A DNA stretch of 64,000 nucleotides from Eledone cirrhosa. Lineage: Eukaryota. Shown one piece after another: positions 3,010 to 64,000 of this stretch. The stretch spans positions 289,664,001 to 289,728,000 of the forward strand of contig OZ024743.1 of NCBI GenBank assembly GCA_964016885.1. Reading direction: 5' to 3'. The number at the start of each line of letters is the position of its first letter. Positions within the stretch are counted from its first letter, which is position 1. A model generated the notes under the pieces. It worked only from the letters and a program-made list of their open reading frames with translations, did not search any database and was not told the DNA's origin. Made by a program: the position numbers and the translations under genes.

Positions 3010-5305
3010 CAGGTTATAAATTGGGTGTTGAGTTCTAGTCTATTATTGATTGGTGGTTGCGTTTTATCTATAATTAGTGCTTCCTTAATTCTAAGATTGC
3101 CGAGGTTTCATTCCTTAGTTTCTATCCTAACTGTTATGGTTTTGTCGGTGTTTTTGCATTTAACTAGGTGTTTCTTAAATGAGGAAGCGTTAGTATTGAG
3201 GTGTTCTTTTATTCTTATGTGGAGTGGTCTGGTGGTGCTACCTACGTAGAAGTTGTTGCATTTGTCACACTCTAGTCTGTATACGACGTAAGCCTGGTGG
3301 CATAGGTCTGTGTCGTTGATGGGGCAGTTGGCTAGTCTGCAGCAGTTGTCATGTCTGGTGGAGTGTCTTTTGGTTAGCTGTCCGCGTAGAGAAGGACCTG
3401 AGTGGGCCAGTTGGATATCTAGTCCCTCTCATCTGATGGCTCTGCGGATGGCTGTTGTTGTTTCTTCACTGAAGTGTGGGAGCTTCAGGAAGCAAGTGTT
3501 AGTGCCTCGGGTGTGGTGTCCTCTGTTCTTTCTGGCACGGTTTGTGGTGGATGTCGTGTATCCGTTCAGTTTGAGTACTTCCAGGAAATGTGTGGTGTGT
3601 GTGTCTCGGTCTCCATCGTCGGTGCATTTGTTCCGGATACGTGCCAGTTCGTTCCTTATGTATCCGAACTTGGCACCGAATGGGAGGGCCGATCTGAAAT
3701 GTACGAACAGGTCCCTGCTGGCGGCTTTTTTATAGAAGCAGGTGTGGATGTTGCCTTCCTCTGTTACCCTGAGTTGGAAGTCCAGTAGGGATAGGGATCC
3801 ACGGTCATCGGGGTGTTCCATGCTGAACTTTATACTGGCGTCCATGCTGGAGAATGTTGTGTATATTTTATCTGCCTCCTCACGGGATGATGTAAGATGT
3901 AAGGATGAGTATGTCATCTACATATCGGGTGAAGAAAGCATGGGAATGGCAGGTGTTGAGGGCTCGGCATTCTAGCTGGTTCATGTAGGTGATGGCCAGC
4001 AGGCCCGATAGGCTGGATCCCATGGGTAATCCTGTTGTCTGTCTGTATGTGTGGTGGTGGAAGGTGAAGTACGTGTTGTCTACTGTGAAGGACAAAAGCT
4101 GGTGTATGTCCGTCGGGTGGAGGCCATAGCAGTGGATGTCCTCTGCGACCACGCAGTCCGTCAATAAATCGACAGCTGGATGAGCGGGGACTGTAGTGTA
4201 GAGGGAGACAACGTCTAGGCTAAAAGCGTATTTATTTAGTTTAAGTTGTTCAGGCTGGAGTTGGTGTAGTCTACGTATAACTTCGTCGGAGCTACTGACA
4301 TGCCCGGGAAAGGTGGAGAGTAGAGGCTTGAGGACCTGGGAGAGGAGCCAGGAAATGTTGTATAGGGGTCCTTCTATGCTAGAGACGATGGGTCTTATTT
4401 GTGTCTTAGTACTATTCTTGTGGGTCTTGATGAGGTGGTAGAAAGTGGGCAGTCTGCTATTTCTAGTGGTGTAGTTGAGCTTAATTTTATTTGGGAGTTG
4501 TCTTCTCCTACAGATATCGAACCAAATGCAGTTGGTCTGTTTTTCGATCTGGGCTGCAGTCATGTCCGGGATCTCTGTGTATAATTCATTGTCGCTTAGG
4601 TGTTCAAAGGCTAGGTTATTGTATGTGGCTTGAGAGATGACGCAAAACTCTTTACCTTTGTCGGATGGTAAGTATATAAGTTCCCTATTCCGATATCCGT
4701 TTTAGCTGGTAGGCAGCCCGACAGAAATTCGTTTCTATGTCGAGCCATAATTTGTCGTCCAGTTTCTGTTTCAATATAAACTTGGGACCCAGGCTGAGGA
4801 GGTCTAATTCCTCTCGGGAGAGGGATCCTGTCAAGTCTGTGACGAGGTGTTTTGCGTCAGGTGTGTTGTTGGTCGGGGCGCCGCTAGGTTCGGTGTTGGT
4901 ACTGTCTTGTTCGCCTCTGTTGGTGTTTAAAGTTGGGTAGTTGTTAAGACGGTTGGCCGTCCTGAGTTTGATAAATTTTTGCGTTAGACGTATTTTTTCG
5001 TAGTCTCGGCGATGGTGGTATGACCTGTCTATAGCGGCGGAGATAACTCTGGACAGAGGTTCTGGGGTTTCAGCGAGTTGTGGTACAAGGCTGGAAATAG
5101 TCCGTATGTGATGTTGTAGCGTGCGGTGTAGGTGTTGTATGAGTTTTCTTAGGCAGAATTTTTGTATGTAACTAAGTGATCGTTTGAGGCCTGGAGATTT
5201 GAAACATGTTGGTAGGTGCACATTTTTGATAGTTTTGGGGATGATGTTGTTACTCAGGCATCGTTTTAGGAAGTTTATTTGGCAGCCGGCTTTGGCGCGC
5301 TTTTC
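3010..5305 (-). pseudogene. Disrupted PLE1 RT/GIY-YIG ORF (inverted arm)
   Basis: ORF pieces 4685-5221, 3880-4563 and 3429-3917 match the plus-arm protein; ~207-bp deletion near 4695 and a 7-bp duplication (ttacatc) near 3895. Confidence 0.9.
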
Positions 5306-7859
5306 CTATCCTTACGCCTGAGCCAGGCCCAGTTCACAACTGTAAAGAAACTCTTCCAGCTATCTGAAAAGCGCGCCAAAGCCGGCTGCCAAATAAACTT
5401 CCTAAAACGATGCCTGAATGACAACATCATCCCCAAAACTATCAAAACTTTGCACCTACCAACATGTTTCAAATCTCCAGGCCTCAAACGATCACTTAGT
5501 TACATACACAAATTCTGCCTAAGAAAACTCATACAACACCTACACCGCACTCTACAACATCACATACGGACTATTTCCAGCCTTGTACCACAACTCGCTG
5601 AAACCCCAGAACCTCTGTCCAGAGTTATCTCCGCCGCTATAGACAGGTCATACCACCATCGCCGAGACTACGAGGAAATAAGTCTAACGCAAAAATTTCT
5701 CAAACTCAGGACGGCCAACCGTCTTAACAAAATCCCAACTCTAAACACCAACAGAGGCGAACAAGACAGTACCAACACCGAACCTAGCGGCACCACGACC
5801 AAAAACATACCTGACGCAAAACACCTCGTCACAGACTTGCCAGGATCCCTCTCCCGAGAGGAATTAAACCTCCTCAGCCTGGGTCCCAAGTTTATATTGA
5901 AACAGAGACTGGACAACAAATTATGGCTCGACATAGAAACGAATTTCTGTCGGGCTGCCTACCAGCTAAAACGGATATCGACTCTCGACAATAACACCAC
6001 GGAATCCATCAAACCCAGATTCCCGATATACCAACTGGATCGCCCACCCTGTCCACCGCCTGCCAACCGCGAACTTGAAGAAAAAATCTCGAGGCTAAAA
6101 AATTTCGTATCTAACATCTTACGGAAACAGAAGAAGATAGCCCCAAACCTCTCCAGGACACAACAACTCGCCCTGAAGAACCTACGGAATAGGGAACTTA
6201 TATACTTACCATCCGACAAAGGTAAAGAGTTTTGCGTCATCTCAAGCCACATACAATAACCTAGCCTTTGAACACCTAAGCGACAATGAATTATACACAG
6301 AGATCCCGGACATGACTGCAGCCCAGATCGAAAAACAGACCAACTCCATTTGGTTCGATATCTGTAGGAGAAGACAACTCCCAAATAAAATTAAGCTCAA
6401 CTACACCACTAGAAATAGCAGACTGCCCACTTTCTACCACCTCATCAAGACCCACAAGAAGAGTACTAAGACGCAAATAAGACCCATCGTCTCTAGCATA
6501 GAAGGACCCCTATACAAAATTTCCTGGCTCCTCTCCCAGGTCCTCAAGCCTCTACTCTCCACCTTTCCCGGGCATGTCAGTAGCTCCGACGAAGTTATAC
6601 GTAGACTACACCAACTCCAGCCAGAACAACTTAAACTAAATAAATACGCTTTTAGCCTAGACGTTGTCTCCCTCTACACTACAGTCCCCGCTCATCCAGC
6701 TGTCGATTTATTGACGGACTGCGTGGTCGCAGAGGACATCCACTGCTATGGCCTCCACCCGACGGACATACACCAGCTTTTGTCCTTCACAGTAGACAAC
6801 ACGTACTTCACCTTCCACCACCACACATACAGACAGACAACAGGATTACCTATGGGATCCAGCCTATCGGGCCTGCTGGCCATCACCTACATGAACCAGT
6901 TAGAATGCCGAGCCCTCAACACCTGCCATTCCCATGCCTTCTTCACCCGATATGTAGATGACATACTCATCCTTACATCATCCCGTGAGGAGGCAGATAA
7001 AATATACACAACATTCTCCAGCATGGACGCCAGTATAAGGTTCAGCATGGAACACCCCGATGACCGCGGATCCCTATCCCTACTGGTCTTCCAACTCAGG
7101 GTAACAGAGGAAGGCAACATCCACACCTGCTTCTATAAAAAAGCCGCCAGCAGGGAACTGTTCGTACATTTCAGATCGGCCCTCCCACTCGGTGCCAAGT
7201 TCGGATACATAAGGAACGAACTGGCACGTATCCGGAACAAATGCACCGACGCTGGAGACCGAGACACACACACCACACATTTCCTGGAAGTACTTAAACT
7301 GAACGGATACACGACATCCACCACAAACCGTGCCAGAAAGAACAGAGGACACCACACCCGAGGCACTAACACTTTCTTCCTGAAGCTACCACACTTCAGT
7401 GAAGAAACAACAACAGCCATCCGCGGAGCCATCAGACGAGAGGGACTAGATATCCAACTGGCCCACTCAGGTCCTTCTCTACGCGGACAGCTAACCAAAA
7501 GACACTCCACCAGACATGACAACTGCTGCAGACTAGCCAACTGCCCCATCAACGACACAGACCTATGCCACCAGGCTTACGTCGTATACAGACTAGAGTG
7601 TGACAAATGCAACAACTTCTACGTAGGTAGCACCACCAGACCACTCCACATAAGAATAAAAGAACACCTCAATACTAACGCTTCCTCATTTAAGAAACAC
7701 CTAGTTAAATGCAAAAACACCGACAAAACCATAACAGTTAGGATACAAACTAAGGAAAGAAACCTCGGCAATCTTAGAATTAAGGAAGCACTAATTATAG
7801 ATAAAACGCAACCACCAATCAATAATAGACTAGAACTCAACACCCAATTTATAACCTGA
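5306..7859 (+). CDS. PLE1 polyprotein: reverse transcriptase + C-terminal GIY-YIG endonuclease, one 2-bp frameshift near 6241 (Nematis/Neptune-like linker; clade tentative)
   Basis: RT motifs DKG, IRPIVS, SLDVVSLYT, GLPMGSSLS, RYVDD; linker CRLANCP..C; EN VVY..CDKC..YVGST.R.L..R..EH; ORFs 5279-6259 and 6312-7859 join in frame with +2 nt. Confidence 0.93.
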
Positions 7860-8241
7860 TAGGGCTTCTAGTCCCATATTTACACACCCCACACACACGC
7901 TTACACCTGCACTTATTCTCTCTCACACATACACACACAAAACCAGTTCTAACACCAGATAACACCTATCCCCCACATTTACGAATAGACTTATCTTCTC
8001 ACACTCACACACACACACTCACATACTTACACCTTCATGCATTCTCCCACACACTTAAACAGGCATGTATATAATAAAAAAAAACAAAAAACCCCTAAAC
8101 AAACCCCTTTTAAAGGGAGACTACTCTTTATCCATCTAATTTTAACTCTTTGACATTAGAGATAGAACAGATACTCTATACTATTTCCTGTCAGCATGGC
8201 TTGGCAAGATATTTAGAAGGCTGGTTTGAGACCTTTATTTC

Positions 8242-8276
8242 CCTCTGAAGAAGAGATATTATCTCGAAAATTAAGG
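8242..8276 (+). ncRNA. Minimal HHR in the PLE1 pseudo-LTR (plus arm)
   Basis: CCT-CTGAAGA-A-GAGAT ATT ATCTC-GAAA-ATTA-AGG; stem I only 3 bp. Confidence 0.6.
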
Positions 8277-10359
8277 ACATTTAAATAAATCTAAGGTAAA
8301 AGACAATTTGTCAACAATATCTTTTGCAATTGCATTCTTTTTCTATGTCCATACCTGCATTGTTTTGGCTTTATTATACATATTCAAACGTTTATATATA
8401 TATATGTTGGTATCGATGTGCGTTTCGGCAAGATAGACTTAATCATGAGGATTAACAATATACTGTAAATACTAGACTAAATATTACATTGTGAGGATTA
8501 TACCATAGATTTCGTGCCTATTCATAAATTCGTCGATCAAAATTTTGTTACAACAATTAAAATTCATGATGAAATATTAAAATTATTTAATGTATCTGAA
8601 TTCTCACCAGGACTGGACTCTCCTATATATCTTCGATATTGATTAACTGAATATTATTAAATTATTAATTAAAGCTTTTAGATCCAATAATATTAAAATT
8701 ACCTGCATAAATTTACTTTTTGTCCACATATATCATCGTCTTTGTGAAAGAAACTATATTTAATTGTACGACTAAATCTCTCTTTTATCTAATGTATAAT
8801 TTCGTAGACGTGATTTAAAAGGGGAAGCTGTGACATTTATGTTTTTCCCATGTCAGAATTAAATTACTTTCACGATGTTTTGAAACTACATCATGTTCAA
8901 ATTATTGCGGGAAATAGCTTTTCTTGAAATCATTATTAAAAATATACCAGGGAGGCTTGAGATTCGTGAGCTAAAGATATATAACCTAGCAGCCACATAG
9001 CCTGATAGGGATAGCTGCCAAATATTCCTTAAATTAAATAATATTTGAAGACAACATTAGAAAATCTAGTCCATTGTCTAGAGAAAATACGTTGAATATT
9101 CCTGGCTAGAATGACGTTATTAAAATACATGTTTTTCAGAGCTAATCTGACCCGCACCTCCAAAACAAACAAACAGAAATGGATGAAATCATTTATTTCT
9201 CATTTCAGTCCAGATCTATGGATTCTGTTTTGGGGTCTCATTCCTATCGTTATATCCATTATCAGGTTTTAAAGAATTGCGTGAAAGTAAGAAATTTTAC
9301 GTCGGTTCTTTTATTCTTGCTCAGCTTGGACACAGGCCGCCTTTAACCAATATTCACGAGGCGTTGTGCGACTGAAAATCAAAGGTTTACCCCATGGACA
9401 AGACACTGATTTGTCCAAAATATAATCAGCACATTTCACTAGCACTTGTTCTCAGCGACATGAAGTGGAACAATCTAAACAATGTGCCCGCAGCCAATTT
9501 GGGGAACCAAACCCACACACGACCTCAAGATCTTAAGCTCAACAACGTAAACAGAAGGACATGTGCATTTACCTTTTATGAGCATGTTACCAATGCAGTT
9601 AACATTTCCTGCTCAGTAATATAGACAAGGCGTACTGTAACAGAAGGTGTGAGAAATTAATTCATGACGGAATGTAAATAAACGGTGTTGCGTTATCATC
9701 TTTGTCAGGAACATTCATTTTGCTCTATGGCACTGAAGATTACTTATAATTATACTCGACATATTGTATTTCATATACAATTCACTCTAGAAACACCCCA
9801 CTCCCATTACCTTCCAAGTTTTCTGTCACCAAACATCAGTTATGTATTTCAAATATGTTTACAATGAAGTTTACGTATTCAATATAATATAACATACACA
9901 TTTACATATTAAATATTACATAGGACACTACTCATTACAAATCTATTTAAACGTCACGGATGTAAAAAGCCATGTACTAAGACAAATATATAACGTACAC
10001 AGTTACATATATCGAACAGTAGTCATAACAAATCTATTTAAATGTGACGAATGTATGATGTCAGGAACACAGAAGAGGAAACAAACAAAAACAAACAAAA
10101 TATGCCAACGAAAGAAAAAAAAAATCCATAAAACAACGCAACATTATTGTTCTTTATTAAATGCATTAACCTAAATATACTAATTATAAAACTCAACTAA
10201 AATCAATATGAGAAGAACAGAAATATCCACTCATCATTATTACTGCAGTATTGTCGTCTTCCAGATGAACATTATAAACGATAGTAACAACAGCAATATG
10301 TACAGCAGTCCCTTCATAAGCAGCATCAACAACATTTCAAAGAAGAATAACAACAATAG

Positions 10360-46385: not shown

Positions 46386-46735
46386 TTAGAAAGTGAGGTT
46401 TTTTTTACAAAATGAAAAATAACCGAGGTGTCCTACACGAGTGGAAGTATAAAGAAAAAGGGATGAAATCGAAAATGTAACTGAAGTCTTATTTTTTTTA
46501 AAAATATATATATTTATTTGGTTCCTTTACCGGTTTCGCAGTTCTTCTGCTTTTCAAAAGGTGAGTTGAGATGGAGGGTCTGTGGTTTTTCTCACAAAAC
46601 CACAGACCCTCCATCTCAACTCACCTTTTGAAAAGCAGAAGAACTGCGAAACCGGTAAAGGAACCAAATAAATATATATATTTAAAAAAAAAATAAGACT
46701 TCAGTTGCATTTTCGATTTCATCCCTTTTTCTTTA
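46386..46735. mobile_element. Fold-back copy of the 30567-30738 element with two U3-A8 HHRs (46524-46561 minus, 46624-46661 plus)
   Basis: ~140-bp inverted arms centred near 46592; (TA)n flanks. Confidence 0.8.
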
Positions 46736-46758
46736 TATATATATATTTCTCTGTCCCA

Positions 46759-50752: not shown

Positions 50753-50792
<40 letters not shown>

Positions 50793-51017
50793 AGTATGCA
50801 TGTATACGTACATACATATATGTATACAGACGTACAGTAGCATGCACATATATATATATATATATACATATATACATACATATGCATACAGGTACGTACG
50901 ATACATGCATACTTACATTTAAGTAAGTGCCATACTAAGAGTGAGAAATGAAATTTCGTTTTCATTTTGTTTCAATTTATCGTTTTCGGTATGCCTGACC
51001 GATTTAACTCACTCAAT

Positions 51018-51025
51018 ATGCAAAT
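51018..51025 (+). promoter_or_regulatory. Octamer ATGCAAAT (repeated in each unit), followed by TAATTTTCATA and a TATA-like AAAGTATATA
   Basis: Motif seen directly and conserved in the diverged 37-kb member; promoter function is inferred. Confidence 0.5.
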
Positions 51026-51098
51026 TAGGCTGCTCAGCCGTTAATTTTCATAAGGAAAGTATATACTTTCGAACGTTCAACTATCTGGCAGATGGGTA

Positions 51099-51143
51099 AA
51101 CGGTGCTGATGATAGCTAACAAGCTTGAAACTAGTACATCGTT
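51099..51143 (+). ncRNA. Minimal type-I HHR, unit 1 (predicted cleavage after 51136)
   Basis: AACGGTG-CTGATGA-TAGCT AACA AGCTT-GAAA-CTAG-TA-CATCGTT. Confidence 0.9.
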
Positions 51144-51564
51144 CCTGTGTCAGTGTTGAACAAAAAGGTGACGTGGTTGCCTTAACACCGTATTGCATAA
51201 ATTCAGGCTGTTCAGTTTGTTTACAAACGAACAAAGCGACGTTAGCGCCACTAAACTGATACGTGCATATATGTATGTGTACCTGTATGCATATGTATGT
51301 ATATATGTATATATATATATATATGTGCATGCTACTGTACGTCTGTATACATATATGTATGTACGTATACATGCATACTTACATTTAAGTAAGTGCCATA
51401 CTAAGAGTGAGAAATGAAATTTCGTTTTCATTTTGTTTCAATTTATCGTTTTCGGTATGCCTGACCGATTTAACTCACTCAATATGCAAATTAGGCTGCT
51501 CAGCCGTTAATTTTCATAAGGAAAGTATATACTTTCGAACGTTCAACTATCTGGCAGATGGGTA

Positions 51565-51609
51565 AACGGTGCTGATGATAGCTAACAAGCTTGAAACTAG
51601 TACATCGTT
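51565..51609 (+). ncRNA. Minimal type-I HHR, unit 2 (predicted cleavage after 51602)
   Basis: Identical to unit 1. Confidence 0.9.
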
Positions 51610-52034
51610 CCTGTGTCAGTGTTGAACAAAAAGGTGACGTGGTTGCCTTAACACCGTATGGCATAAATTCAGGCTGTTCAGTTTGTTTACAAACGAACAA
51701 AGCGACGTTATAATAAGCGCCGCTAAACTGATACGTGCATATATGTATGTGTACCTGTATGCATATGTATGTATATATGTATATATATATATATGTGCAT
51801 GCTACTGTACGTCTGTATACATATATGTATGTACGTATACATGCATACTTACATTTAAGTAAGTGCCATACTAAGAGTGAGAAATGAAATTTCGTTTTCA
51901 TTTTGTTTCAATTTATCGTTTTCGGTATGCCTGACCGATTTAACTCACTCAATATGCAAATTAGGCTGCTCAGCCGTTAATTTTCATAAGGAAAGTATAT
52001 ACTTTCGAACGTTCAACTATCTGGCAGATGGGTA

Positions 52035-52079
52035 AACGGTGCTGATGATAGCTAACAAGCTTGAAACTAGTACATCGTT
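52035..52079 (+). ncRNA. Minimal type-I HHR, unit 3 (predicted cleavage after 52072)
   Basis: Identical to unit 1. Confidence 0.9.
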
Positions 52080-52372
52080 CCTGTGTCAGTGTTGAACAAA
52101 AAGGTGACGTGGTTGCCTTAACACCGTATGGCATAAATTCAGGCTGTTCAGTTTGTTTACAAACGAACAAAGCGACGTTAGCGCCACTAAACTGATACGT
52201 GCATATATGTATGTGTACCTGTATGCATATGTATGTATATATGTATATATATATATGTGCATGCTACTGTACGTCTGTATACATATATGTATGTACGTAT
52301 ACATGCATACTTACATTTAAGTAAGTGCCATACTAAGAGTGAGAAATGAAATTTCGTTTTCATTTTGTTTCG

Positions 52373-52427
<55 letters not shown>

Positions 52428-53614: not shown

Positions 53615-53675
53615 AATGGAAAAAATGAAATTTCATTTCTCACTCTTAGTACGGCTGATAATTAAATATACGTAC

Positions 53676-53717
<42 letters not shown>

Positions 53718-53992
53718 CATGTATGTATGTATATACATACTACTGTACGTCTGTATACATATATGAATGTACGTATACATACTTATATTTAAGTATCAGC
53801 CGTACTAAGAGTCAGAAATGAAATTTCATTTTTTTTCCATTTATATATATATATATATATATATAAATGGAAAAAAATGAAATTTCATTTCTGACTCTTA
53901 GTACGGCTGATACTTAAATATAAGTATGTATACGTACATTCATATATGTATACAGACGTACAGTAGTATGTATATACATACATACATACATG

Positions 53993-54054
<62 letters not shown>

Positions 54055-54536
54055 GTACGTATATTTAATTATCAGCCGTACTAAGAATGAGAAATGAAAT
54101 TTCATTTTTTCCATTTATCGTTTTCGGTACACCCGACTGACTAACTCACTCGATATGCATATTAGGCTGCTCAGCCGTTAATATGCATAAGGAAAGTATA
54201 TACTTTAAAACGTTCAATTGACTGACAGGAAGGCATACGGTGCTGATGACAGCTAATAAGCTACAAACCAGTTCGTCGTTCCTTTGTCAGTGTCGAACAA
54301 AAGAGCAACGATGGTTGCCGAACACTGTACGGCTACTAATTCGAGCTGTTTTTTTACAAGCAAACCGAGCATTATAATAAATGTTCGGTAAACCCATACG
54401 TACATATATATATGTGTGCATGTATGTATATACATACTACTGTACGTCTGTATACATATATGTATGTACCTATAAATACTTATATTTAAGTATCAGCCAT
54501 ACTAAGAGTGAGAAATGAAATTTCATTTTTTCCATT

Positions 54537-57094: not shown

Positions 57095-58030
57095 TTTCCG
57101 TCTCCTCCCTGATATTTCTCTTCAGGTGAAACCTGAAAAAGTAAACTAGGGCTTCGCCGAAGAGAATAGTACTTATCTGGAATCATTTTAGGCGCATCCA
57201 AAAAAGGACCTCTTTCGCCACGGCCATCAAGAAGACAAAAACTTCCGGTCTTTCCTTGTCTAAAGGAAGACGGAAGGCCCATCTTTACAATGGATACGAG
57301 TCATACGTAAAGCCACAGATAAGCAATACTCGGACTCTCGATGAGTGCATGTAGGACGTTTTCGTCCCCCAGTGCGCAACTCGGGTGCTTATTGTTGCGG
57401 ATGTGGGTTTGGGTGTTTTGGGGATAATTGTGTTGGTGTCTGGTATGATGATAAAGGTGGTGGTGGTAGTAATGGGGAGGCTTGTGTGTGTGTTGGCATT
57501 TATTGCTTTAAGGCTTTTTTATCTTCCCTACGTTCACCCCTTTTTAGGGGGTTGGAACAAGACAAATAATTTTTTTGTTTCTTTTTGTTCTTGTGGTAAA
57601 TGGCTTGCTACTCCCTACCTTCATCAAAATCCATATCCGTCAGTTATTGTTTTCATAATGTTGCTGTTGTTGCTTTTGTTGAGGGTGTGGTATTGGTGTA
57701 ACGGCGGCTACTGTTTTCCTGCTTTTTGTGGGCAAGAGGATCTCAAATGGTTTGTCGATTTACATAGATAACATTTTTGTTTTTTGCCTTTTATATTTAC
57801 TCGCAGGTCTACGCTGTAGGGCCACTGTATTTGGTCCAGGATCTTTTCTATTTCGCTTGGTTTACATGAAGGTGAATCTCTAGATTTAGCCCAGACAATG
57901 TTTACGTTCGCTGCGTTTAACGTAGAGGAAGTGTGTCCGTATCTCCAAGGAAAACGCAGCCGACAATCCACCAGCTGTTCACCCCTGGGGGAATCTCTGG
58001 TATTCTTGCCTGATAATCTTCTTTGTGAGA
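57095..58030 (-). pseudogene. Internally deleted L1/Tx1-like relic: gag-like ORF1 zinc knuckle joined to an ORF2 C-terminus
   Basis: CYLCKSTNHLRSSC (CX2CX4HX4C) in 57708-58148; DENVLHALI and YFFRFHLKR match 62699-63566. Confidence 0.65.
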
Positions 58031-58104
58031 CAGACACATAAACAAAAACAGAGCATAAACAACAACAATGATGATGATGTGGAGGATAATAATGATAATA
58101 ATAA

Positions 58105-58265
58105 TTATTTCTACTTTTGGCACAAGGCCAGCAATTACCCCAGTGCATTACTGGTAATTTATTTTATCGACCACGTAAGGAGGAAAGTCAAAGTTAACCG
58201 CGGGAGGATTTGAAATCAGAACGTAAAGGACCATGGTGTCTGACACTCTACCGATACTGCAAATC
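58105..58265 (-). mobile_element. SINE family A copy
   Basis: Matches the consensus with an internal deletion; further copies at ~16670-16820, ~18360-18515 and 43655-43747. Confidence 0.8.
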
Positions 58266-58269
58266 CAAT

Positions 58270-61250
58270 AATAATAATAATGCTTTCTTTATTAACCACA
58301 AGGGTTTACATAAAGTAGACATTAAGGACAGTACAGGACAATACAGGACGGTACAAATGGGCATTTCTGCGTGTAAAAAAACAAAAACAGAGGATGTAAC
58401 AAAAAAACAATGAAAAATTCCCCAATAGGGGGGAGACTTCCGAGGGACATTTGTGGAGAAAGCCCATTAAAAGGCCACAGTGACGCTGACCACCAGGGCA
58501 AGTGCCCTCTCCCAGTTTTCCACCTTTAATTTACAGACACATACTCGGGCTATTCTTGCTTCTCTCACCCATCTTTCAAAAAATGCTGGGGAGAGAGCAC
58601 TTCCTTCTCTACCCTGATTTTCCTTTTCAAATGAAATTTGAAAAAGTCGATCAGGGCATCAGCGAAGAGGTAAGTGCTCGTCTTCAGCCCTTTCAAACGT
58701 GTACACCATACTATCTCTTTCGCCATGGCCACCAGAGATATAAAAACTGCCTACCCTTCCCGGCTAAAGGAAGAGGGCGGGGCAATCCTCACGATGGACT
58801 CAGCTGATAGCTGGATCCGTCCTACACGCGACTGCAGGTGTTCGACATAAACCCACAAGTCAGAAATTCTCGGACACTGGACGCGTGCTTGCAGGACTGT
58901 TTCGTCGCCCTGTGCGCCTCTCGGACATGCCCGGCTGACGGCACCTCCATGCCTGTAGATTTATCCCGAACCGGCAAAGCTCTTCGGTAGCACTTTCAGG
59001 CCAGGGATTTCTGGAAGTTGTCCATAGGCCCCGGCCCGAAAGTTCTTCCGAGGAGATTGGCTAGTTGATTTTCGTCGAGGCCTAGAGTTTTCCCCAAGTA
59101 CGTCGTCGCTCTTCCCCTCCACTAATCCTCTATAGAACGCCGAGGTGGAGTTTCCACCGATCACATTGCCCGATTGGTCGAGGGCTGTGAGCGCCTGAAG
59201 ACATTTCAGTCCTCAAGCGCTCCTTCTCGGTCTTCGCTTGACCCAGGACTGCAGCTCCGTCAAGGAGGTCCGGACCGAACCAGAGCCCTAGCAATTTAAC
59301 CGGTCCGTCCGTCCAGCGCCCGACGACGGTGTTGGACGGCATGGACCTACCTCTCCAGGTGCCGAGCTGCAGGCCCACTGACTTTTCGTGGTTGATCATT
59401 GCTCATGTCACCGCTTCGTATTCTTTTAGTGTAGTGCCGATCGCCTCGATGTGTTTGGCGTTCGACACCACTACGGTGACATCGTCCGCATATGCTGACA
59501 TGGAACTTCCGCATCCTAGTTCGCGCGGGACACCCCTCAACGTCTCCAGTTTCTGCAGTAATGGCTCGAGAGTCAATACGTACAAGAGGGACGAGAGGGG
59601 ACATCCTTGGCGGACCGAGCGCATGATGTTGAACGGTTCCGAAAGGTAACCGTTCATTCTCACCACAGAGCAGATGTCGCTGTGCATGGCAGCGATCCAG
59701 CCTCTGAAGACGGGCCCAAAGCCAGCCGCCTTTCTGACTGCCGCTAGGTAACGATGGTCAATCCTATCGAAAGCTTTCGACTGATCTAAATTGATCAAGG
59801 ACCCACCCGTGCCAGGTTCCCTAGCTACCCTCTCTACGATGTATCGCATGAGGTGGAGGTTGTCGTGGATGGATCTGTCGGGAATGGCGCATGTCTGCGC
59901 CTCTCCCACCAGACCACCAACGACAAGCGCCAACCTCTTTGCTAGCACCTTGGCCAAAATCTTGAACTCTGTGTTTAGCAGAGTTATGGGCCTGAAATAT
60001 GTTATCCCCCTTGTTCGGATCCTTTCTCAGCAGCGCCACCGCGCCTCGGCTCACAGAACTGGGAATGTTGCCAGTTGCAGTAGACGTCCGCCAAGAGGCC
60101 TCAAAACAAGTCTGGCATCTGTACGTAAAATTCATAGGGCAGACCATCCAAAACCAGGCGATTTACCCCTTGTGCAGCCAGTCATTGCCTCCCGTACTTC
60201 AGCGGCTGTTATCGGCTCTTCGCAACACTCCGCCTCAGTGGCCGAGAGCCGCGGCAGTCCGACGAGGTATACACTAATGTCCATCCCTCGACCCGGCCCA
60301 CCGCTGCCCCAGAACATCTGAGCGAAGTGTCGCTGAAAAGTTTTTCACATTTGCCCGGGATCAAGTAGCATGCGTCCGTCGTGGTCCACCAAAGACCGGA
60401 TCGTGGCTTTGTTGCCACGACGCGTCTCCGCCACTCGGGCCCATTGAACGGCTTTCGTCCCCTCGTGTCTGAGAGCACGCACCCTAGCTCTGACAACGCA
60501 GCCTTCGTGCTTTGCATTGAAGAATTGGTCAAGGGCCAATTTCTCCGCACGCACGTCGTTCGCGATGCCTTTGCTAAGCGCCTCGTCTAATTTTCTAACT
60601 AGTTCTCCCTTTGCTCTATTTTTCTCTATTGCTAAAGCCTTACTAAACCTAATGGATTCTATTCTAATCGCTCTTTTCAGAGCAAACCACCACTTGTTGT
60701 TGACGATGGCCCCTCGTCAACGACCGCTTAACTAGTTCGCCAATCCGGTCTCTGTAGGCCTTGCGCGCTGGTAAGGACGCGTTTAGCTTCCAGTAGCCGG
60801 GTCCTCGTCTATGAAGCCTATCTAAGTCAAACACACAGATCACGAATTTGTGGTCCGTGTAGCTGACTATCTTGAATTGTGGATAGCCTAGGCTAGAGCT
60901 ATCTATTTCCCTACAAAATACTCTATCTAGATATGATCTGGATGACCCTATGCGGTTTGTCCAAGTCCACATTGGCACATTCGGGAAATCCAATCGGTAC
61001 CTTTCAGAGAGTTCAAAACGCCTGAGCAGGTTGGTGAGACTCTTGCACCCTCCACCCCTATCCGCTAATCCCACACAGTCCCAGCGTGCATCTAAGAACC
61101 CATTCCAGTCGCCCACTAACACTAAAGAAAGGTTTCCAGACGCCGGAAGAAATCAGGCCGCCCTGTTCTTGTCGGGGCATAGACGGCCACTAGCCTGAAA
61201 GCTTGCCCGTCTTCGCTGGTCACGTCCAGCACCACCAACTTACCTTCTGG
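58270..61250 (-). pseudogene. Degenerate L1/Tx1-like LINE ORF2 (APE endonuclease + RT)
   Basis: EN: VGDWN, WTW, SYLDRVF, TDHK, GYWKLN; RT: LDQSKAFDRIDH, VRQGCPLS, AYADDVT; many frameshifts. Confidence 0.92.
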
Positions 61251-61254
61251 CCCG

Positions 61255-61539
61255 TATGGCGAGATCCAGGACTTAAAGTGGGAGGTAAAAAGGATTTGGA
61301 ACTGCCATCAAGTCAAAGTGGTCCCAATTGTCAGAGGCGGACTAGGTAGTATCTCAAAGAGTTTCCAATGATGGTTAAAGAAAATTGGTCCCGCCCCGCT
61401 TTTGGAACACTTCAAAAGGCATGCTTGCTGGGAACAGCAAGAATTCTCCGATACGTCCTGAATATCTGAGGCTGCAGGTAGCGGCTTGATATTCATTTCA
61501 ACAAACTTTCCAGTTAAATAACATCAATGACTGAGACTC

Positions 61540-61592
<53 letters not shown>
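61255..61592 (+). mobile_element. 3' end of an R4/Dong-like (RLE) LINE with (AAT)n tail
   Basis: QDLKWEVKRIWNCHQVKVVPIVRGGLGS...LQKACLLGTARILRYVLNI*, short UTR, then (AAT)n. Confidence 0.75.
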
Positions 61593-61596
<4 letters not shown>

Positions 61597-62444
61597 TTTC
61601 TTAATTGGCCACAAGGGCTGACATCAAGAAAAACATTACAGGCGGCACAGGACGGTACATATTTCTGGCCACGTCTGATGTGGGTTTTTTTTCGCCCACA
61701 CATGTCCCAAAGCATTTTGTATTTGGGACTCGGATGCGCATTCCACTCGGCGCGATTTTATGTTAATCGTCTGATAAGACACGGTGCATAGACGACGATA
61801 ATCCATTTTATTTAGTGTGTGTGTGTGTGTGTGTGTGGGGGGGGGTTAGGCTTACCCTGTACCCATCTTTCTTTACCATTTTCTTGACTTCATCTAGTTC
61901 CTCCTGAGTTACCTGGATTGTTTCGCATGTTTTAGCTGCTTTGGCAAAAGACACGATGTTGTTATTCTCATTGTTGTTGTTGCTGTTGTTGTTATTGTTA
62001 CTTTTGTTATTGTTATTTTTAGTTTCAGTAGTGGTGGTTGTGGCTTTAGTGGTGTTCGGTGTGGAAGAGTCTATTCTGGGTGAATCCATTTCGATGTCAC
62101 GAGATAATTTATTTTTTCTTTTGTTTATGTTTCATTGCGGTGGTGGTGGTGGGTGTGGCTGCTTCAACACCTGCAGTCATTGGTAATGGCGGGAAATGAA
62201 TGTCTGCATGAGACAAATTTAAATTATTGCTACTGCTTATATTTTTAGTGTTGGCAAACGTAATTTTCCATAAATCGCAATTTTAAACAAACGAAAACAA
62301 CAAACCTATGCGGAGCTTACGATGATACAATTTCCTACGTAGGTCGCCAATAATAATAATGATAATAATAATAATAATAATAATGATTTCATTTACAAAG
62401 AGGAGGCTAGCCCAAAGTGTAGGATCTGTGGAGAGAGAGAGAGG

Positions 62445-64000
62445 AGACATGTAGGGGACAATACAAAGACAGGGACAGTGGGGGTTTACAATAAGGTCGA
62501 GTAAAAGTGCACAATGGCAAGACTAATTTAACAATGAAAATATAAAAATATAAAATAAACTATGCATAAATATAACAAAATAAATTTCCATATAGGGGGT
62601 GGACGACCCTGGGGTGACTCGGGTGCCCCAGCAATCCTGAACCACCCTGCGCTTCTAGGGCACCCAGGGAGAGCACCCCTCTCCTCAAGTTAGCTAGCCT
62701 ATAGGCGCATGGTCAGAGTAGGCCCATTCACACGAGCCATTCTCGCCACATTCACCCACCTTTTAGCAAATGTACTGGGGGGCAACACTTCTCGCTCCAC
62801 CCTCACCTTCCTTTCCAGGTGAAACTTGAAGAAGTTGATGAGGGATTGGCCGAAGAGAAAAGTGTCTGTCTTCAGTCCTTTTAACCTGGTCCACCATATA
62901 ACCTCTTTCGCGACTGCCACATAGACAGAGGAAAATTTCCTGCTCTTCTTGACCTAAGGAAGGCGGTGGATCAATCTTCACTATGGACTCGGCCGATAGC
63001 CGGATTCGTTCCACACGCGACAGTAGCTGTTCGACATAACTCCACAAGTCAGTAAGTCACGGACATTGGATAAGTGCGTGCAGAACGGTTTCGTCGTTCT
63101 GTGCGCATCTTCGGCAGGTCCGTCTGACATCACTTCCGTGCCTGTAGAGTTTATCCCGAACCGGCAGTGCCCCCCGGTAGCACTGCCAAGCGAGGGATTT
63201 CTGGAAATTGTCCATTGTCCTCGGCTCAAAAGTCCTCCGGTACAGACTGGTCAATTCGACTTCGTCGAGGCCCAAAGCTTCTCCGAGTGCGTCATCGTAC
63301 TTGCTCACCACTAATCCTCTATAGAACTCGAGAGTGGAAGTTCCACTGATCGCATTGCCTGCTTGGTAGAGAGCAGTGAGTGCCTGGCAACTTTCCAGGT
63401 GCCAGTCACCCAATCTCGGTCTCTTCTTGACCCAGGACAGCAGCTCAGTTAAAGAAATGAGCTGCGGAAAGGCCCGTCTGATAAACGGCGACCACATCTG
63501 TTCACCGTTGAGGCAGAATATCTGGAGATGTCGCAGCCTCAACGCATGTCTGCCACGGCATGCCAAGCCCTCCGCGTAGAGGGTGCTGGCAGCAGATGGA
63601 CCGCCTCACAAACGGAACTTGTCCTCTCCACAAGAATTTGAAGAGGAGCCGTTCCAACTTGACGAGGCGCGGACGGGTGCAAGGCACGACGATCAGGCGG
63701 TAGTAGATGACGGACGCGATGTACGCATTCGCCACCTCCGCGCGACCTTTCATTGATAGCTTCCTCCCAGTTCATTTTTGGGTGAGACTGGCTACTCTGC
63801 TCGTTACTTCGTCCCAATTCTTTTCCACCTGGAGGTCTGGTCCGAACCAAACCCCGAGCAACTTTATCGGTCCGTCCGTCCAGCGCCCCACGACGCTGTT
63901 GGACGGCATAGGCTTACCTCTCCAGGTTCCGAGCTGCAAGCCCACCGACATTTCCGGGTTAAGTTTGGCTCCTGTCAACCTTTCATATTCCTTCAATAAG
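62445..64000 (-). pseudogene. Second degenerate L1/Tx1-like ORF2 (C-terminal half), running off the window
   Basis: GAKLNPEMSVGLQLG, IKLLGVWFG, GGLGMP, ALPVRDKL, CRRC..DETVLHALIQC; frameshifted. Confidence 0.9.

Follow-up and report, generated by a model that had tools for sequence, protein, structure and literature searches.

A dispersed tandem hammerhead repeat in Eledone cirrhosa: a probable non-LTR retrozyme with PLE-type insertion ends

The Array and Its Surroundings

The window, that is the whole 64,000-nt stretch of Eledone cirrhosa DNA analyzed here, contains an insertion that extends from about 50788 to 52378 and is bounded on each side by an (AT)n run (Table 1). Its tandem part was detected with TRF as an array of period 470 (50881-52378; 3.2 copies, 97% matches) and comprises two complete cut-to-cut monomers and two partial units. 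A 45-nt hammerhead string occurs at 51099, 51565, and 52035, providing three identical intact motifs, and the two complete monomers share 97.9% identity. A preliminary description of this DNA had reported three near-identical head-to-tail hammerhead units, with predicted cuts after 51136, 51602, and 52072 and monomers of 466 and 470 nt that lack a credible ORF. All of this was recovered exactly; the only ORFs longer than 60 aa in the array are antisense reads through the AT microsatellite. Folding of the whole monomer gives a z-score of -6.8, which is mostly due to an AT hairpin and becomes -2.7 once the hairpin is removed.

The left end of the insertion is formed by an inverted arm, in which 50785-50895 aligns with the monomer from position 251 down to 143 (~108 nt). 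This 5' inversion goes beyond the preliminary description, as do the PLE-type ends at two sites, the targeting of (AT)n runs and the U6-type upstream element.

The family of the array is referred to here as A. The window also holds an insertion of a second family, B, and a cluster of decayed A copies (Table 1), which includes a copy of 78% identity (53986-54272) and a broken hammerhead near 54234-54283. Other repeats in the window are a 142-nt near-perfect inverted repeat with a 6-nt spacer (46448-46737), probably a small inverted insertion; an inverted pair of Penelope/Poseidon-type PLEs (RVT_1 + GIY-YIG; 3429-8300), with a minimal hammerhead-like motif near 8245; and, on the reverse strand at 57700-64000, fragmented ORFs of non-LTR retrotransposons that we presume to be L1/Tx1-like.

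Table 1. Features of the array, its neighbors in the window, and the family C tandem found elsewhere in the genome. Positions are those of the window unless a locus is named; cut positions are predicted.
Position	Strand	Feature	Remarks
20124-26611	-	Hydra-type coding PLE, near-complete	In (TA)n; candidate helper type, separate from the array
37132-37700	-	Family B insertion	Intact hammerhead 37350-37401, GUC site; ends in (AT)n at the short site
50758-50787		Left (AT)n target flank	
50788-50895	-	Inverted arm	Monomer ~143-248/251; outer end is the "short" 3' end site
50893-51136	+	First partial unit, forward arm	Joins the inverted arm at ~50892-50900 with short microhomology
51017-51066	+	U6-type upstream element and TATA-like box	Putative promoter; also a predicted RNA hairpin; 12-mer 51017-51028, TATA-like box 51059-51066; block recurs at 51483 and 51953
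51094-51145	+	Type I hammerhead 1	Cut after 51136 (GUA)
51137-51602	+	Monomer 1	466 nt, cut-to-cut
51560-51611	+	Type I hammerhead 2	Cut after 51602
51603-52072	+	Monomer 2	470 nt, with a 6-nt insertion typical of older subfamilies
52030-52081	+	Type I hammerhead 3	Cut after 52072
52073-52378	+	Last partial unit	Stops at the "long" 3' site (monomer 310)
about 52320-52378	+	PLE-type tail	~60 nt
52379-52423		Right (AT)n target flank	
53615-54531		Cluster of older, decayed family A copies	Mutually inverted
L119:6440-8810		Family C tandem	8 hammerheads, inversion, AT flanks, ~36-nt tail; without U6-type element

The Hammerhead Ribozyme

How firmly is the ribozyme established? The Infernal/Rfam comparison, which had been proposed as a check, gave no match for the array at the gathering score and only a weak one below it, to Hammerhead_HH9 (E 0.029; 18.5 bits against a gathering score of 52); scanning the array by E-value gave mostly microsatellite and miRNA matches. 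Nor is the hammerhead fold the MFE structure (-0.4 vs. -10.2 kcal/mol; z-score -1.3). The case for a hammerhead therefore rests on its intact core and on covariation. The core CUGANGA/GAAA/UH does not vary among nine chosen variants taken from families A, B, and C. In their alignment 91.9% of the cells are paired and 9 of 15 pairs show changes on both sides, one stem I pair occurring as GU, UG, AU, and UA. The observed covariation was reached in none of 500 shuffles, a count that is not to be read as a probability since the rows are related, and pairing drops to 27-44% in slid controls. Covariation across three families of this genome thus supports the hammerhead fold.

Details of the fold differ from those first proposed. 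The seventh pair of stem I is broken in five of the nine variants, so that the stem is 6 bp long and not 7, while the U of that pair is invariant. In natural hammerheads an unpaired U contacts loop 2, and the invariant U in stem I agrees with such a contact. Stem II consists of 3 bp plus a U.U mismatch, the position 10.1-11.1 being U.U in families A and C but G-C in B. The PLE-type minimal hammerhead, in which helix II is reduced or absent, was considered and rejected, for helix II is full-sized here (3-4 bp, covarying, with a 6-nt loop); the term "minimal" in the preliminary description is not borne out. Helix III is a self-complementary hexamer. It is compatible with dimers, in agreement with the earlier suggestion that a palindromic stem III suits dimeric cleavage.

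Two weakening features, the U.U in stem II and the palindromic helix III, are thus combined in one ribozyme. Axolotl retrozymes show a U.U at the base of helix II or a palindromic helix III of 1-2 bp, each with cleaving precedents, and cleavage of hammerheads with either feature is weak in monomers and good in dimers (PMC7229834). However, in one published test only one of nine predicted retrozyme dimers was cleaved. With the axolotl precedents on one side and this result on the other, self-cleavage of the predicted hammerhead is likely but not assured.

Families and Copy Number

The array represents a single insertion of a dispersed family, whose head-to-tail arrays are found on many contigs. 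A 35-nt core of family A has 12,457 exact matches in the 3.0-Gb genome, a motif common to A and B has 17,273, and a motif of an older subfamily has 6,984; these counts refer to units, not insertions, and reversed controls for the same searches gave 0 matches. Family B, found at L028, has a 466-nt unit that is homologous to that of A (alignment score 62, against a shuffled maximum of 25). Family C, found at L119, has a 310-nt unit with the ribozyme geometry of A and B. Another type of hammerhead, with a CUGAAGA core and a helix II of 7-8 bp, occurs at L089 and L117.

The architecture suggested at the outset, a dispersed tandem non-LTR retrozyme that is non-coding and carries a type I hammerhead in every unit, is supported. 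The proposed youth of the family holds for the subfamily of the array, whose units differ by 0.5% and show 99-100% identity to other loci, but not for the family as a whole, which has older layers represented by the older-subfamily motif and the 78% copy at 53986-54272. As to the host, the genome carries molluscan hemocyanin genes with runs of seven domains. One hemocyanin unit scores 659 and 650 bits against PDB entries 4yd9_C and 1js8_A, which we take to be cephalopod hemocyanins, and 460 bits against 8tnv_A, presumably from a gastropod. A cephalopod host, as first supposed for the family, is supported because the best matches are to the cephalopod entries.

Insertion Ends and Target Sites

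Outer 3' ends were scored in 59 records, 36 of them around the first motif matches on contig C1 and 23 others drawn from the best DNA matches and the window (L094/L120 and L022/L024 overlap). Only ends between monomer positions ~190 and 335 were admitted, and within this range 95 of the 96 scored ends fall at two sites, 43 at a short and 52 at a long site, the remaining one being a locus edge. The short site lies at ~245-255 in A and at 228-233 in B, whereas the long site lies at ~291-312 in A (mostly 305-310 by inspection) and at 301-302 in B. Both sites are homologous between the two families, and the short site sits in a predicted hairpin loop in each. AT dinucleotide runs flank 80 of the 96 ends.

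When both ends of an inverted insertion could be scored, one was short and the other long in 30 of 32 cases. The window array obeys this rule, with the short end on the left and the long end on the right. One exception is a locus edge, the other the decayed cluster at 53.6-54.5 kb; in addition, L109 is apparently short at both ends and was lost from the pair count through the filters, and L112 ends at a position other than the two sites. Target duplications are generally hidden by the (AT)n runs. The sole 9-bp case seen is L159, where a duplication surrounds an older-subfamily copy that lies outside any microsatellite and inside a PLE ORF. L159 at first resembled a chimera, a reading rejected in favor of a nested insertion with target duplication.

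The inner ends behave differently from the outer ones. All 98 are spread over the monomer (many of the A values between 115 and 198 are probably artefacts of microsatellite boundaries) and none falls at the cut, position 1. Enrichment at the cleavage site, which would be a sign of linear cleaved templates, was not seen among these 98 ends, so the templates ran across that site. At 36 junctions the two arms break at unrelated monomer positions.

Partial tandems, an inverted 5' arm, and a tail at one end are all found here, and the same pattern is described for PLE insertions (Craig et al., 2021). The PLE tail corresponds to the stretch between two internal RT start sites, one of them in a stem-loop, as seen in vitro (Frangieh et al., 2024, PMC11167929). 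In their sequence, the insertion ends directly carry this PLE "tail" signature. Together with the PLE precedent, the one-short-one-long rule suggests that one target strand was primed at each site, each strand thus having an RT start of its own. Since its ends match the scars left by PLEs, the element is likely to be a retrozyme that borrows a PLE enzyme.

The Promoter-Like Block

Besides the ribozyme, the block best conserved between A and B (78% over 58 nt) opens with a 12-mer located 119 nt (A) or 131 nt (B) ahead of the cut. The 12-mer of A is identical to that of one host U6 gene, in the same orientation and ~77 nt upstream of the point where the hammerhead stem begins. In the host, the motif is found at -76 to -78 in the genes for U6 (three types), U6atac, and RNase MRP, with a TATA at -31, and it is absent from the U1 and U2 genes examined. 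More generally, host Pol III type-3 genes (L031-L033, L125, L126 upstream) have an octamer-containing element at about -77 and host U1/U2 genes (L043-L045, L134-L141) have a different hexamer near -57, with a TATA-like box near -31 in both sets.

A PWM built from five host sites gives 19.9 for A, 20.3 for B, and 5.1 for C, against 21.5-26.3 for the host sites, which are themselves included in the matrix. A score at the level of A and B was reached by 1 in 1000 simulated monomers and by 0 of 126 window tiles. These matches suggest that A and B carry a captured host type-3 promoter. The implied start in A would lie 40-47 nt before the cut, in the 5' arm of the ribozyme, where stem I begins. There are precedents for promoters within the unit, in newt satellite 2 (a snRNA-type Pol II promoter) and, at the 3' end of the cleaved monomer, in schistosome SMalpha (a Pol III promoter; PMC2220036; PMC6765202); our literature search found no U6-type promoter in retrozymes.

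Does the block work as a promoter? Among the marks of a type-3 promoter the upstream element is present, but the TATA spacing of the host genes and a unit free of T-runs are not. Element and TATA box are 40-41 nt apart in A and B, 5 nt less than the 45-46 nt of host genes, and such spacing is conserved in insects (PMC1761439). Pol III would be expected to terminate at the T-runs inside the unit (T4 in young A, T6-T7 in older A, T5 in B), and family C spreads without the U6-type element. All of these departures suit a different view of this one step, in which 51017-51066 is an RNA hairpin needed for the RNP, the U6-type match is accidental or a leftover, and read-through supplies the transcripts; the block is indeed predicted to fold as a hairpin in both A and B. 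That view has to set aside the identity, orientation, and position of the 12-mer as well as the rarity of its PWM score, and it sits poorly with the variation within the hairpin, whose 3' arm varies between subfamilies while the 5' arm is constant. Furthermore, a change that completes the pairing of the hairpin at the expense of the motif is present in 30 copies against 6,984, which is a weak test as it concerns a single mutation. We place the hairpin without a promoter a little short of an even chance, and a working promoter at 51017-51066 close to, and at best at, an even one.

Form of the Template

Were the arrays copied from a circle or from a multimer? Units resemble the other units of their array: the nearest or tied neighbor lies in the same array for 63 of 74 units in family A and for 34 of 35 in family B. 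Divergence within arrays is mostly 0-1% in A (range 0-3.9%) and 0.5-1.1% in B, compared with 2.1% (A) and 7.7% (B) between arrays. Fixed private variants are shared within 9 of 18 A arrays, and variants are shared by both arms of one insertion (L022/L024). The longest arrays reach ~30 units with an internal divergence of 0.5% (L086/L087). The similarity within arrays and the length of some of them are consistent with rolling reverse transcription of a circle, a process hypothesized for retrozymes (PMC7229834). However, a single monomeric circle fails to account for the mosaic array of the window, in which the middle unit has the 6-nt insertion and its neighbors do not, or for the alternating unit variants in L021, L119, and L123. 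These variant patterns could stem from dimeric circles, template switching, gene conversion, or multimeric templates.

Mosaic and alternating arrays also speak for templates of another kind, namely long uncleaved read-through transcripts of a non-autonomous tandem that is mobilized by a PLE and has a hammerhead of little strength or little importance. Predictions point to a weak ribozyme, PLE insertion in vitro proceeds without the need of hammerhead cleavage (PMC11167929), and uncleaved oligomers can serve a PLE RT according to a review (PMC6765202). Read-through templates are nevertheless unlikely. With breaks at unrelated positions in the 36 junctions, the arms are not adjacent stretches of one linear RNA; the ~30-unit arrays of such low internal divergence would require equally long sources; and compensatory changes keep the hammerhead.

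Helper and Coding Parent

A Hydra-type PLE in the window (Table 1) illustrates what kind of helper may be involved. It encodes RT and GIY-YIG in two frames (21671-23924), has DKT and CxCX5C motifs, a 5' inversion, and tandem 1.5-kb terminal repeats that contain hammerheads, with predicted cuts near 20261 and 24087. Its short and long ends are ~72 nt apart, giving a tail of ~72 nt. The DKT and CxCX5C motifs are features of the Hydra clade, which inserts in (TA)n (Craig et al., 2021), and the target and end architecture of this PLE match those of the array. When A, B, and C were compared with five PLE terminal regions, a small part of the PLE families of the genome, no significant similarity was found for A or B; scores were marginal in three cases, two for C and one for B, and otherwise at background. 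The helper is a candidate only by its behavior, because no PLE terminus tested resembles A or B, and Naiad and Neptune PLEs likewise favor microsatellites (Craig et al., 2021).

Other Hydra-type PLE families adjoin A and B arrays. One of them, the second Hydra-type family, adjoins family A arrays in 4 of 36 loci (L091, L097, L118, L119) and has a hammerhead-like motif with the variant core CAGAAGA. U6atac pseudogenes were observed in AT runs at L127, L128, and L133, two of them adjoining pieces of Hydra-type terminal repeats.

The units might instead be the pLTR of a coding PLE and the arrays its truncated insertions, given that the architecture of the insertions is entirely PLE-like and that published Xenopus retrozymes are homologous to pLTRs. 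In 40 larger regions, however, no PLE ORF was contiguous with an arm (a small sample against more than 10,000 units, so that a rare parent is possible), and no RT + GIY-YIG contiguous with the repeat was found among tblastn matches in 643 kb. Head-to-tail joins pass through a fixed non-coding junction, and the units show no similarity to five local PLE termini. A pLTR origin thus seems very improbable, and the earlier preference for a retrozyme over a pLTR stands as far as the 40 larger regions go. As for a satellite or minisatellite that spread by DNA-level duplication with an incidental hammerhead, the long arrays and period-2 patterns point to a degree of local expansion once copies had inserted, but the two fixed end sites, the (AT)n flanks, the one-short-one-long rule, the target duplication, and the covarying ribozyme stems largely refute it as the means of dispersal and leave it scarcely tenable.

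A Possible Mechanism

The array is probably a recent non-coding hammerhead tandem insertion, a non-LTR retrozyme, likely copied in trans by the RT/endonuclease of a (TA)n-targeting PLE. For such a retrozyme the following steps can be proposed. The U6-type element of an upstream unit would drive transcription from the start at stem I; an external U6-type promoter inside the RNA that it produces is possible only for a tandem or circular unit. The hammerheads are predicted to cut, probably in dimers formed via the palindromic helix III, and to release monomers of ~466 nt, which a host ligase would close into circles. Judging by the insertion scars, the PLE endonuclease would nick both strands of an (AT)n run, and reverse transcription would then be primed by one strand at monomer position ~250 and by its partner at ~310. 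Each cDNA may run round the template over part of a unit or over as many as ~30 units, and joining of the two cDNAs at arbitrary points would leave tandem arrays with an inverted arm and, at a single end, a ~60-nt tail.

The fullest form of this proposal is a circular-RNA retroelement with a captured U6-type promoter, rolled round by a PLE from two fixed sites, one per strand, so that thousands of scars in the genome would record the unresolved second-strand step of PLE transposition. Taken as a whole it is possible but doubtful. If expressed, the family would amount to an abundant circular RNA in a cephalopod, and its U6-type element would in addition establish a type-3 promoter motif in the species.

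Comparison With Known Systems

All features of non-LTR retrozymes that can be assessed in a sequence were found in the array and its family. The units are tandem, non-coding and a few hundred bases long (466/470 nt), with a complete type I hammerhead, below the Rfam gathering score, in three consecutive units. The family is dispersed and without LTR/PBS/PPT organization, as judged from head-to-tail arrays on many contigs and more than 12,000 cores, and one copy has a target-site duplication longer than 4 bp (9 bp, at L159). The class itself is already known, and the family is likely to be a new animal member of it.

Like the retrozymes of coral, mussel, and axolotl, the repeats are tandem, non-coding, and low in GC, with one type I hammerhead per unit (PMC7229834). 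The palindromic helix III resembles that of HHR_Amex1 of the axolotl, and the U.U at the base of helix II that of HHR_Amex2; in contrast to those elements, both weakening features occur in one predicted ribozyme. PLEs have been proposed as helpers of retrozymes (Cervera and de la Pena 2020, PMC7229834). The portions of PMC7229834 consulted make no mention of ends at two fixed RT starts, of targeting to (AT)n, or of a U6-type element, and the word "cephalopod" is absent from its main text. A monomer of 466 nt, which the preliminary description thought longer than those known from animals, is ordinary: published lengths are 150-450 bp in one account (PMC7229834) and 51-972 bp in another (bioRxiv 10.64898/2026.07.22.740005). 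A search of main texts in the literature found no cephalopod retrozyme; in Dfam, Repbase, or supplements the unit may be listed as unknown, as a PLE, or as a satellite. The words "ribozyme" and "hammerhead" are absent from the main text of the repeat annotation of O. vulgaris (PMC13282606).

The retrozymes of bioRxiv 10.64898/2026.07.22.740005 belong to the same class and have the same proposed dependence on PLEs. There the evidence is co-occurrence and pLTR homology, mostly in vertebrates and with no mollusc sampled, whereas families A and B are without pLTR homology and the link to PLEs comes from insertion scars. The connection between retrozymes and PLEs has so far been based on co-occurrence and terminal-repeat homology; here it has a direct signature in the insertions of a family of more than 10,000 copies. 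A promoter inside the unit is known from two other hammerhead tandem repeats, newt satellite 2 and schistosome SMalpha (PMC2220036; PMC6765202). Differently from these, the putative promoter motif of A and B matches the element of host U6, U6atac, and MRP genes and not that of U1/U2.

The resemblance to PLEs themselves (Hydra clade, Poseidon PAc) extends to insertions in tandem and inverted form, to the tail at a single end, to the pair of internal RT starts and the hammerheads, and, for the Hydra clade, to (TA)n targeting (Craig et al., 2021; Frangieh et al., 2024). Unlike PLEs, the array is without an ORF and its tail is longer, 60-70 nt compared with the 30-40 nt quoted for them. For Poseidon PAc in vitro, start sites did not differ between the strands (PMC11167929), whereas one site per arm is found here. 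This one-site-per-arm rule bears on the later steps of PLE transposition, which are unvalidated and for which the existing in vitro assay is suited. The non-autonomous elements of Chlamys such as MRC1 (Craig et al., 2021) are likewise non-coding, arranged head-to-tail in multiple copies and dependent on PLEs for insertion.
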